Origin: Rhizomicrobium sp.
GTDB taxonomy: Bacteria > Pseudomonadota > Alphaproteobacteria > Micropepsales > Micropepsaceae
NCBI GenBank assembly: GCA_035551495.1
Contig: DASZMT010000056.1
Span: forward strand, 37,290-101,289
DNA: 64,000 nucleotides
Reading direction: 5' to 3'
Each line of letters opens with the position of its first letter. The first letter of the stretch is position 1. The notes beneath the pieces were generated by a model. That model searched no databases. It was not told where the DNA came from and worked only from the letters and a program-made list of their open reading frames with translations. The position numbers and the translations under genes are program-made. Below are positions 16,293 to 18,239 of this stretch, in pieces.

Positions 16293-16307
16293 CGTTGAAA
16301 TTCAACG
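16293..16307. promoter_or_regulatory. Palindrome CGTTGAA-A-TTCAACG in the AT-rich divergent intergenic region (candidate operator)
   Basis: Perfect 7-bp inverted repeat read directly; TTGACA hexamers at 16247 and 16354. Confidence 0.5.
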
Positions 16308-16377
16308 GAAGATGAAATATTAATCTCTGTAAAGAAAAGACGGCTGCGTTGCGTTGACAGCCCTTCGGGAGGACGCG

Positions 16378-16791
16378 ATGGACATGGCGTCTGCGCACGG
16401 CAGCGTGCAAGCCCTTTTGAACGGTCACGAGTGGTATCACATCACGACGCCGCTGGATTACGTGCGGGCCGTGCTCTGGTGTCTCGCGAACTTCCTGACG
16501 GCGATCGCCTATTTCCTCATTCCGTACGAGCTGCGCGCGTGGCGTCGGGCACTGCCGTTTCCGGCGACCTCGCTGATCGTGATGCTGTTCATCGCCTTCA
16601 TCGCGCTGTGCGGCACCTCGCACTTCGCCATGCTCTTCATCATGCAGACCGGCCCGTGGTGGGCGATCCTCCTGATCTACCTTCCGATGGCGGCCGTATC
16701 GCTCGCCACCGTCGCGGTGCTGCGTGTCAACCGGCGCCTCATTCTAAGCGTTTTGCAAAGCGTAGGGGCGGCGCTCAAGGCACAGACATGA
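16378..16791 (+). CDS. Stand-alone ethylene-receptor-like (ETR1-type) transmembrane sensor domain
   Basis: GGGAGGA RBS. ANFLTAIAYFLIPYEL and FIAFIALCGTSH match ETR1 SDFFIAIAYFSIPLEL and FGAFIVLCGATH (recalled) with identical spacing. Three hydrophobic helices. Confidence 0.85.
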   Translation: MDMASAHGSVQALLNGHEWYHITTPLDYVRAVLWCLANFLTAIAYFLIPYELRAWRRALPFPATSLIVMLFIAFIALCGTSHFAMLFIMQTGPWWAILLIYLPMAAVSLATVAVLRVNRRLILSVLQSVGAALKAQT

Positions 16792-18239
16792 GCACATCAT
16801 CCGGCGACGGAGCAGGGGCACACTGGACCACGGCACGGCATTCGCTGGCACGGCTGGAGATGGCGACGACGCGGTCGTGGCGCAGTTGGGCCGGCGGCAC
16901 CGGTGCACTCCTGGCCGGCGCGATCCTGCTGTGTCTCGCGGCGCTCCTGGTGAGCGTGAACGTCACGCAGCTGCGCGCCTCCTTCGGCTGGGAGCGCCAC
17001 ACCGACGCCGTCCTCCTGCAGCTCGAGCGCGAGCGCGAGGCCTTGCTCCAGGCCGAATCCGCGGCGCGCGCCTATGTGCTGGGCGGCGGCAATCTGGCGC
17101 TCGCGACGCTGCAGGACGCGCATGCCGATGCGACGCGCCGCATGGCCGCGCTCGGCAAGCTGACCGCCGACAACCCGGCCCAAGTGGCGCGGTTGAAGGT
17201 TCTCGGCCCCATGATCGCCCAGCGGCTCGCGCATCTCTCCCAGGCGCGGGCGCAGCAGCCCATCCAGACCACCGATCCCGCCACCGCTCGCGGGCTTGCC
17301 GCCAAGGTGCGGGAGAACGAGCGGCTGATGGAGGACATCCGCGCCCAGCTCGACGCGTTCCGCGGCACCGAGATCGCGCTGCTGACGGCTCGGCAGGCGG
17401 ACGCCGACCGGCGCGCCACGCGCTCCATCGGCCTGGCGATCTTCACCGCGCTGGTCGCGCTCGGCCTCGGTGTCGCCGGACTCCTGCTTCTGTTGCGCGA
17501 GCGCACCGCGCAACAGGTCCGCGAGGTGCGCACCGAGCTGATGCACACCCAGCGCCTGGCGCTGATGGGCCAGACCGCTTCGATGCTGGCGCATGAGCTG
17601 AACCAGCCGCTGGCCGCCGCCTCGAACTATCTCGCGGCGCTGCGCCGGCTCGCCTCCGGCAACGCGACGCGCGAGCGGGTCGACGAGACCGCGCAGAAGG
17701 CGCTGGCGCAGATCCAGCGTGCCGGCGGCATCGTCAAGCGCCTGCGCGGCTTCATCGACAAGCGCGACGCCGAGCGTTCGCTGGAGAACCCCGCCACGCT
17801 GATCGCCGACGCGGTGATGCTGCTCGGCACGCTCGACGAGTCGATCAAGCTCGAGACCGTGCTGCCGCAGCGCATGCCTGCGGTGCTGATCGACCGCATC
17901 CAGCTGCAGCAGGTGCTGGTGAACCTGCTGCGCAACGCGATCGAGGCGATGCGCGGCTGCACGCGGCGCGAACTCACGCTCAGGGTGAGCGAACGCGACG
18001 GCGACATGGTCGAGATCTGCCTGCAGGACACCGGCCCGGGCCTGCCGAAGGAGGTCGCGGCACGGCTGTTCCAGCCCTTCGTCACGAGCAAGAAGGAAGG
18101 CATGGGCGTCGGGCTATCGATCTGCCACAGCATCGTCGTCGATCACGGCGGACGGATCTGGGCCCAGGACGCGCCCGGCGGCGGCACGCTGTTCTGCTTC
18201 ACGCTGCCCTCCGTCGAAGAGGCGCGCGAGGCGGCTTGA
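16788..18239 (+). CDS. CHASE3 sensor histidine kinase (FixL/NtrB-like transmitter); start may be 16860
   Basis: TM-CHASE3 (LTADNPAQVARL)-TM; H-box AHELNQPL; N-box NLLRNAIEA; DTGPG; FQPFVTSK; GMGVGL. Confidence 0.9.
   Translation: MSTSSGDGAGAHWTTARHSLARLEMATTRSWRSWAGGTGALLAGAILLCLAALLVSVNVTQLRASFGWERHTDAVLLQLEREREALLQAESAARAYVLGGGNLALATLQDAHADATRRMAALGKLTADNPAQVARLKVLGPMIAQRLAHLSQARAQQPIQTTDPATARGLAAKVRENERLMEDIRAQLDAFRGTEIALLTARQADADRRATRSIGLAIFTALVALGLGVAGLLLLLRERTAQQVREVRTELMHTQRLALMGQTASMLAHELNQPLAAASNYLAALRRLASGNATRERVDETAQKALAQIQRAGGIVKRLRGFIDKRDAERSLENPATLIADAVMLLGTLDESIKLETVLPQRMPAVLIDRIQLQQVLVNLLRNAIEAMRGCTRRELTLRVSERDGDMVEICLQDTGPGLPKEVAARLFQPFVTSKKEGMGVGLSICHSIVVDHGGRIWAQDAPGGGTLFCFTLPSVEEAREAA

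Follow-up and report, generated by a model that had tools for sequence, protein, structure and literature searches.

The ethylene-binding domain (EBD) of the known receptors, those of plants, Synechocystis and Azospirillum, is fused to its output module, and the locus described here raises the question of what such a domain does when it is encoded by a gene of its own. The gene occupies positions 16378 to 16791 of a 64,000-nucleotide stretch of DNA from the soil bacterium Rhizomicrobium sp. (contig DASZMT010000056.1), the whole of which is referred to below as the window. A reading made from the letters and their translations without database searches (the sequence-only reading) had taken the product for a stand-alone EBD related to Arabidopsis ETR1, and proposed that it signals in trans. 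On balance we lean towards the view that it is a Cu(I)-type sensing subunit which would act in trans on an orphan histidine kinase translated together with it. A conserved free-standing EBD would show that the domain is able to act, or at least to fold and persist, as a subunit of its own. Judged from sequence comparisons, a stand-alone, kinase-paired EBD appears to be new; no account of stand-alone bacterial EBDs or of their domain architectures was found in the literature searched, a search that missed several background papers on these receptors.

A separate gene for an ethylene-binding domain

The open reading frame (ORF) runs on the forward strand from the ATG at 16378 to the TGA at 16791 and encodes a membrane protein of 137 amino acids (aa) with three helices. 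Its features are as follows.

16367-16373, + strand: Shine-Dalgarno element GGGAGGA, 4 nucleotides (nt) 5' of the ATG, read from the sequence
16378..16791, + strand: stand-alone EBD (ETR1_N) gene, 137 aa, assigned from Pfam PF25487, homologues and an AlphaFold2 (AF2) model
16420..16482, + strand: clade-specific N-terminal segment, from alignments, with no counterpart in ETR1; predicted to be periplasmic, runs into the start of transmembrane (TM) helix 1
16450..16542, + strand: TM helix 1, residues 25-55, from the AF2 model and alignment; holds N38 (AAC 16489-16491), Y45, I48, P49 and E51
16564..16641, + strand: TM helix 2, residues 63-88; holds I75, C78 (TGC 16609-16611) and H82 (CAC 16621-16623), the latter two putative Cu(I) ligands
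16657..16728, + strand: TM helix 3, residues 94-117; holds Y101 (TAC 16678-16680, in the ETR1 K91 column by hmmalign), S108 and T111
16732..16785, + strand: cytoplasmic C-terminal helix, residues 119-136, from the AF2 model and conservation; R116, R119, I122 and L126 are conserved

The Pfam profile for ETR1_N (PF25487) matches residues 33-116 with 45.1 bits (E=1.2e-11), so far over the gathering score of 27 that the resemblance is not due to chance, and the family membership that had been argued from a hand alignment is thereby secured. A six-frame search of the whole genome shows that the window gene is its sole ETR1_N copy (45.3 bits). The AF2 model, built with 24 homologues, has a mean predicted local distance difference test score (pLDDT) of 83.6 and a predicted TM-score (pTM) of 0.71, and consists of an N-terminal helix (residues 4-15), the three transmembrane helices (25-55, 63-88 and 94-117) typical of ETR1_N, and a C-terminal helix (119-136). 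Helix 2 carries C78 and H82 where ETR1 has the Cu(I) ligands Cys65 and His69. The ORF stops 20 residues past helix 3, leaving no output domain on the same chain. Sequence, model and Pfam therefore agree with the sequence-only reading on the length of the ORF, its strong ribosome-binding site, the three helices and the absence of an output domain; a GGAGG-type element also precedes the start codon in homologous loci.

NCBIfam has no family for the protein. A PDB sequence search gave no match at E<=10, and Foldseek with the AF2 model against the PDB returned nothing at E<=0.001 (best TM-score ∼0.3), so that a structural comparison was impossible. These searches, by sequence and by fold, found no experimental structure of an EBD in the PDB, and the 137-residue protein would offer a minimal system in which to solve the structure and to study the chemistry of copper and ethylene binding.

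A word-indexed search recovered homologues of 126-165 aa from metagenome-assembled genomes (MAGs) of Rhizomicrobium and from metagenomes; there are 50, and each is flagged PF25487. Twenty-four of them, with identities as low as 52%, were aligned, and among the residues that do not vary are N38, Y45, P49, E51, I75, C78, H82, Y101, S108 and T111. The N-terminal segment is likewise conserved within the clade, with N15, H17, W19, Y20, D27, R30, A31 and W34 invariant and C35 nearly so. Of the 12 listed sites at which a strain variant of the region departs from the window sequence, 11 are third codon positions, and independent soil-metagenome assemblies contain the junction with the downstream gene without insertions or deletions (indels). 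Given this purifying selection and the independent assemblies, the EBD gene is a real, selected and separate ORF.

Among genomes, stand-alone copies are rare, as had been supposed. When 401 Pseudomonadota genomes were searched with Pfam in an unbiased manner, 27 of them yielded full ETR1_N hits, 30 in all. The only one that stands alone is the window copy; the remaining 29 belong to ORFs of 401-1253 aa, with scores of 49-143 bits. Among 151 genomes of the same order, five have the stand-alone gene, five others have fused versions of 391-577 aa with Asp and Lys in the columns of ETR1 D25 and K91 (D/K), and none has both. A HMMER search with the family profile against 1.84 billion representative sequences gave 309 matches, and all those at E<1e-13 are 159 aa or shorter, by which measure the window clade is never fused. 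The fused EBDs of the genus and of Pseudomonadota belong to the same domain family. In other species of the genus, canonical fused EBDs of 391-577 aa are seen at L102 (1491-2663), L103 (minus strand) and L104 (738-2468), and all three copies examined are D/K.

The overlapping kinase gene and a proposed split sensor

The last codon of the EBD gene overlaps the start of a second gene, and the two are translationally coupled.

16788..16791, + strand: ATGA overlap, with the kinase ATG at 16788 and the EBD TGA at 16789-16791; translational coupling
16788..18239, + strand: partner sensor histidine kinase, 483 aa, from Pfam
16824..16859, + strand: kinase N-terminal motif W13-TT-A-R-HS-L-AR-L-E24, ∼12-15 residues before kinase TM1; proposed docking element

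The kinase is laid out as the cytoplasmic N-terminal motif, a TM helix, a periplasmic CHASE3 domain (residues 68-204; 66.6 bits in Pfam), a second TM helix, HisKA (260-320; 32.7 bits) and HATPase_c (369-475; 94.8 bits). In NCBIfam the core is FixL-like, with a score below that family's cut-off. An alignment of the partners shows H269 to be nearly invariant, and the kinase has both the HisKA phosphoacceptor and HATPase_c.

This arrangement is a property of the clade. In all 16 clade loci inspected (the window, L001, L003, L005, L008-L012, L014-L018, L105 and L106) the downstream gene begins before the EBD stop codon ends; the overlap is 4 nt throughout save for L014, where it is 1 nt. Fourteen partners were scanned for domains; HisKA and HATPase_c are present in 13, CHASE3 in 12 and MASE3 in two, one of these being a MASE3-GAF-histidine kinase-receiver protein. 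The MASE3-type partner at L012 (5411-6196) is only 262 aa long and without kinase domains, and may be truncated or frameshifted in its MAG. That one type of EBD is found with kinases of unrelated sensor domains suggests that the EBD contributes a separate input. The sequence-only reading had not mentioned the kinase; its overlap in 16 of 16 loci now strongly suggests the signalling in trans that was proposed. Frameshifting or read-through that would fuse the two ORFs was considered and rejected, because the junction sequences vary among loci and a conserved slippery site is absent.

A second link between the two genes lies at the kinase N-terminus. All 16 partner kinases, of CHASE3 and MASE3 type alike, carry the motif W-x2-A-[RK]-x2-[LMV]-x2-[LF]-[EG], which is absent from the two other, unpaired CHASE3 proteins of the genome. 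We searched the 151 genomes of the order with the first 243 residues of the kinase, and matches reaching its N-terminus were found only in genomes that have a stand-alone EBD gene directly upstream of the match. Motif-bearing CHASE3-type partners thus occur in four of these genomes, each adjoining a stand-alone EBD, and every other CHASE3 match begins at query residue 14 or later, beyond Trp13. Positive-inside residues put both the motif and the C-terminal helix of the EBD on the cytoplasmic face of the membrane. Both the 4-nt overlap and the motif, which is specific to the partners, favour a stoichiometric complex over an effector.

We propose that positions 16378-18239 form an operon for a split membrane sensor of two polypeptides. 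The first product would be a three-TM EBD subunit with its N-terminus outside, its C-terminus inside and a Cys/His pair for Cu(I), and the CHASE3 kinase would be made in step with it by termination and reinitiation at the ATGA. The EBD subunit, probably a dimer, would pack against the kinase within the membrane, its cytoplasmic C-terminal helix contacting the W-x2-A-R-x2-L-x2-L-E helix and TM1 of the kinase. A small ligand at the Cu(I) site, whether ethylene or a different molecule that is unsaturated or gaseous, would alter kinase autophosphorylation, and the kinase would pass the signal to a response regulator encoded elsewhere. We infer the physical complex, the binding of Cu(I) and the direction of signalling from the conserved pairing and residues; the identity of the ligand is speculative, ethylene is a tentative and somewhat doubtful candidate, and the suggestion of the sequence-only reading that the ligand is sensed at higher concentrations is likewise conjecture. 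Such an arrangement would point to a so far unstudied wiring by which an extra input reaches CHASE3 and MASE3 kinases through an N-terminal motif.

There are precedents for the arrangement, although not for the domain. UhpC, LiaF and BceAB are accessory membrane co-sensors of histidine kinases. In the UhpC-UhpB, LiaF-LiaS and BceAB-BceS pairs, as is proposed here from an inferred interaction, a separate membrane protein of the same operon supplies or gates the kinase input; in contrast to the EBD, these proteins are unrelated to it in sequence and fold, and are not known to have a site of the copper/ethylene type. The bacterial receptors AzoEtr1 of Azospirillum brasilense, a root-associated alphaproteobacterium (PMC11819568), and SynEtr1 (Slr1212) of Synechocystis (PMC6682694) resemble the window system in combining ETR1_N with a histidine kinase that signals to a response regulator. 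They differ from it in that EBD and kinase form a single chain, in which the set of seven binding residues is complete and the Lys is present (D35 and K98 in AzoEtr1), whereas the window EBD is a separate chain with Asn and Tyr, and its partner kinase has a CHASE3 sensor of its own.

Residues of the binding site and the Asp25/Lys91 question

The reference for the hand alignment is Arabidopsis ETR1, and the residue numbers that follow depend on it. Residues 38-82 of the EBD align without gaps to ETR1 25-69, through helices 1 and 2, with 18 of 45 positions identical, and the stretch AAVSLAT in helix 3 pairs with ETR1 AVVSCAT. The corresponding residues, N38=D25, Y45=Y32, I48=I35, P49=P36, I75=I62, C78=C65 and H82=H69, are those listed by the sequence-only reading, whose alignment holds in every detail. 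Six of the seven ETR1 residues for ethylene binding (D25, Y32, I35, P36, I62, C65 and H69) are therefore kept, and the seventh, D25, is replaced by N38. The ETR1 K91 column is occupied by Y101, and the one Lys that the protein has, K134, lies in its C-terminal tail. The polar Asp25-Lys91 bridge is consequently lacking, and N38 and Y101, which stand in its place, are invariant in the clade, in agreement with the Asp-to-Asn change and the missing Lys reported beforehand. Compared with the canonical receptors, the family to which the window EBD belongs has, by its sequences, a fixed Asn/Tyr pair in place of Asp/Lys.

There are further differences from ETR1. The window EBD has no GAF, kinase or receiver domain on its chain, the loop between helices 2 and 3 is three residues shorter, and the ETR1 segment with Cys4 and Cys6, which serves dimerisation, is replaced by the conserved N-terminal segment of 24 residues. 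The closest comparison is with ETR1-D25N, with which the window EBD shares three TM helices, Y32, I35, P36, I62, C65 and H69, and an Asn at position 25. In planta this variant keeps its metal cofactor and still signals, with reduced affinity for ethylene (PMC10266040) and an ethylene release at least 100-fold faster; natural Asn variants at the D25 position also exist (PMC10266040). D25 and K91 co-evolve, with values of 0.96 in GREMLIN and 0.997 in EVcouplings (PMC10266040). Both the lowered affinity and the link between D25 and K91, which the sequence-only reading had stated, agree with this source.

Since both residues are replaced together, by Asn and Tyr, the window EBD would let the Asp25/Lys91 coupling model be tested in a natural protein. 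A neutral polar contact between N38 and Y101 could take the place of the charged bridge that couples the site to helix 3 in fused receptors and, by analogy with ETR1-D25N, would be predicted to give weaker, faster-exchanging binding. We surveyed the two columns among the best 150 of the 309 profile matches, a sample biased towards stand-alone proteins and in which some of the short metagenomic proteins may be fragments. Asn-class domains lie in proteins of 220 aa or less in 71 of 77 cases and have Lys in the K91 column once (Asp in 28, Tyr in 11); Asp-class domains lie in long proteins in 33 of 61 cases and have Lys in 52. The raw table gives a Fisher p of 2.5e-26, a value that ignores kinship, and a phylogenetically independent test of the coupling of D25 with K91 and with protein length was underpowered, having only two pairs on supported branches. 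In the Pseudomonadota genomes, 23 of 25 alignable fused domains are D/K and none has Asn. The raw table and the published co-evolution agree and support D25/K91 coupling at the level of sequence, as the idea of a coupled loss had anticipated.

Fusion to STAS, PAS-histidine kinase or GGDEF modules is seen in a few Asn-class domains. A separate Asn-class group of 190-210 aa (P0080, P0081, P0090, P0126, P0138, P0199 and others) has a C-terminal extension of ∼80 residues; four members were scanned, and none showed a Pfam domain there.

The Cys/His pair in the C78 and H82 columns is almost universal in ∼200 aligned domains. That C78, H82, Y45, I48, P49 and I75 are so strictly conserved suggests that the window protein has kept the Cu(I)/ligand pocket. 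Retention of the pocket also has a different explanation, in which the subunit senses copper or redox state: the Cys/His site would bind Cu(I), or be oxidised, as the signal itself, and the EBD would report the copper or oxidative state of the membrane or periplasm to the kinase. The invariance of C78 and H82 suits this as well, the nearly invariant C35, an extra residue of the clade one turn before N38, and the invariant H17 could extend a metal site, and the residues for ethylene affinity and signalling in ETR1, D25 and K91, are replaced. However, ETR1 holds copper as a fixed cofactor (PMC10266040), and Y32, I35, P36 and I62, which ETR1 needs for ethylene and not only for copper, are all kept. 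No copper-homeostasis genes lie beside the operon, and we consider copper or redox sensing unlikely.

A further proposal would deny the EBD any sensing role and make it an accessory or scaffold subunit, its fold stabilising, localising or tuning the kinase in the manner of MgrB or SafA while CHASE3 or MASE3/GAF does the sensing. The partner kinases do have sensor domains of their own, CHASE3 or MASE3-GAF, and the D25/K91 signalling bridge is lost. This is difficult to reconcile with a pocket under selection, C78, H82, Y45, P49, E51 and I75 being strictly invariant down to 52% identity, or with the pairing of the EBD with kinases whose sensor domains are unrelated, which suggests an input of its own. 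We regard a purely structural role as quite unlikely.

Phage-borne relatives and the genomic setting

Beyond the kinase-paired clade, the proteins P0054-P0060 are the nearest relatives (E 1e-28 to 1e-40), and none of them is encoded beside a kinase. P0056 (L092 4001-4420, the same as L094) lies on a 30.8-kb contig of IMG/VR, an uncultivated virus genome (UViG) with portal and head-morphogenesis genes, directly after a gene for a papain-like peptidase. P0054 (L091 4001-4480) lies among genes with PHROG matches, including a tail-lysozyme-like segment. The more distant P0066 (L089 4001-4399), with N25, Asp in the K91 column and the motif CGLHH, adjoins an i-spanin-like gene and a muramidase endolysin. 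P0057 and P0060 belong to same-strand strings of small genes which have no Pfam match and, among those tested, no PHROG match, and P0055 is on a short contig where the next gene is not a kinase; these three are phage-like by organisation only. Several of the phage-side EBD genes are followed by genes for coiled-coil, tail-anchored proteins of ∼90-100 aa. Phage-encoded stand-alone ETR1_N proteins with the Cys/His pair may be holin-like or associated with lysis.

The phage-borne proteins P0054, P0056 and P0066 resemble the window EBD in being of 130-160 aa and of the Asn class and in keeping the Cys/His pair; P0054 and P0056 match it at E 1e-35 to 1e-40 and also carry the N-terminal segment of the clade. 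They differ in lying in strings of phage genes, some beside an endolysin or peptidase gene, with no kinase next to them, and in having Tyr, Phe, Asn, Met or Asp in the K91 column. A quick tree, weakly supported, nests the kinase-paired clade (92 in the Shimodaira-Hasegawa approximate likelihood ratio test, SH-aLRT) in a group of short, almost all Asn-class domains; this enclosing group comprises 44-47 domains (SH-aLRT 87-90) and includes these phage-borne proteins. Kinship with phage membrane proteins encoded near lysis genes raises the question of what part the EBD fold may play apart from hormone sensing. Since the nearest relatives outside the kinase-paired clade are phage membrane proteins, some of them encoded beside lysis genes, hormone sensing need not be the function of the stand-alone clade taken as a whole.

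Several observations weigh against a sensing subunit for the kinase. Because these relatives are phage-borne, some of them encoded beside lysis genes, the ancestral role of the stand-alone clade may not be sensing. By analogy with ETR1, in which K91M and K91A cut ethylene binding to 6% and 1%, such binding may not be sustained by a Tyr in this column. The window EBD, with 45 bits, has the lowest score of the 30 full ETR1_N hits (49-143 bits for the fused ones), and the EBD/kinase pair is patchy, being present in five of the 151 genomes of the order. Searches of the ORFs of the 64-kb window with the CheY, PhoB and NarL receivers (phmmer) found no receiver domain, which makes the kinase an orphan, and no RNA-seq runs containing the EBD gene were found. 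The interpretation given by the sequence-only reading is partly supported.

The phage kinship bears most directly on the possibility that the window gene encodes a domesticated phage membrane protein with a pore, holin-like or ion-permeation role, merely co-expressed with the kinase or regulated by it as LrgAB is by LytSR. The other members of known context in the short Asn-class group that holds the window clade are phage-borne (P0056, P0054 and P0066), three TM helices with the N-terminus out and the C-terminus in are the topology of a class I holin, and Ca2+ permeability of ETR1 and ERS1 is reported in a preprint (10.1101/2025.10.20.683334). The window gene, however, is in a conserved chromosomal setting without phage genes, and is neither part of a lysis cassette nor matched by a holin profile. 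In PHROGs the window protein (P0001) has no match, holin or other. Of nine further stand-alone relatives put to the same search, P0062 alone gave a match, a weak one to a holin (E=7.5e-4). A tblastn search of 50,697 GenBank phage records with P0001 gave no match. The overlap and the partner-specific kinase motif, pointing as they do to a complex of fixed stoichiometry, also argue against mere co-expression, and we find a pore very unlikely. The remaining explanation, for which the sequence-only reading had itself allowed, is that the ORF is the 5' part of a longer fused EBD-kinase gene split by frameshift, assembly error or pseudogene formation, and it is refuted by the stop/start overlap in 16 loci of diverged sequence, by independent assemblies free of indels, by close relatives that are all of 77-165 aa, and by frames that are offset by one base with no conserved slippery site common to the junctions.

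Returning to the EBD as a sensing subunit for the kinase, its most extended form would make the pair the prototype of a two-polypeptide receptor for ethylene, alkenes or gases, in which a minimal Cu(I)-binding EBD, derived from a stand-alone clade whose other members are carried by phages, plugs into varied kinases through a docking helix, Asn25/Tyr91 would be the signature of fast exchange and action in trans, and the small subunit would be suited to a first experimental EBD structure. We put this forward as a doubtful possibility.

Upstream of the EBD gene, the AT-rich intergenic region contains the perfect palindrome TTGAAATTCAA at window positions 16295-16305, which occurs nowhere else in the window (chance expectation 0.01). 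It was found in this genome only and is absent upstream of homologous operons, and since it is not conserved in relatives we do not count it as an operator. The neighbourhood is partly syntenic in relatives and has neither a phage nor a copper theme; the genes on either side have metabolic or chaperone functions and encode a thiolase, an SDR protein, an amidohydrolase, a GNAT protein, DnaJ, a Sel1 protein and a PNPOx protein.

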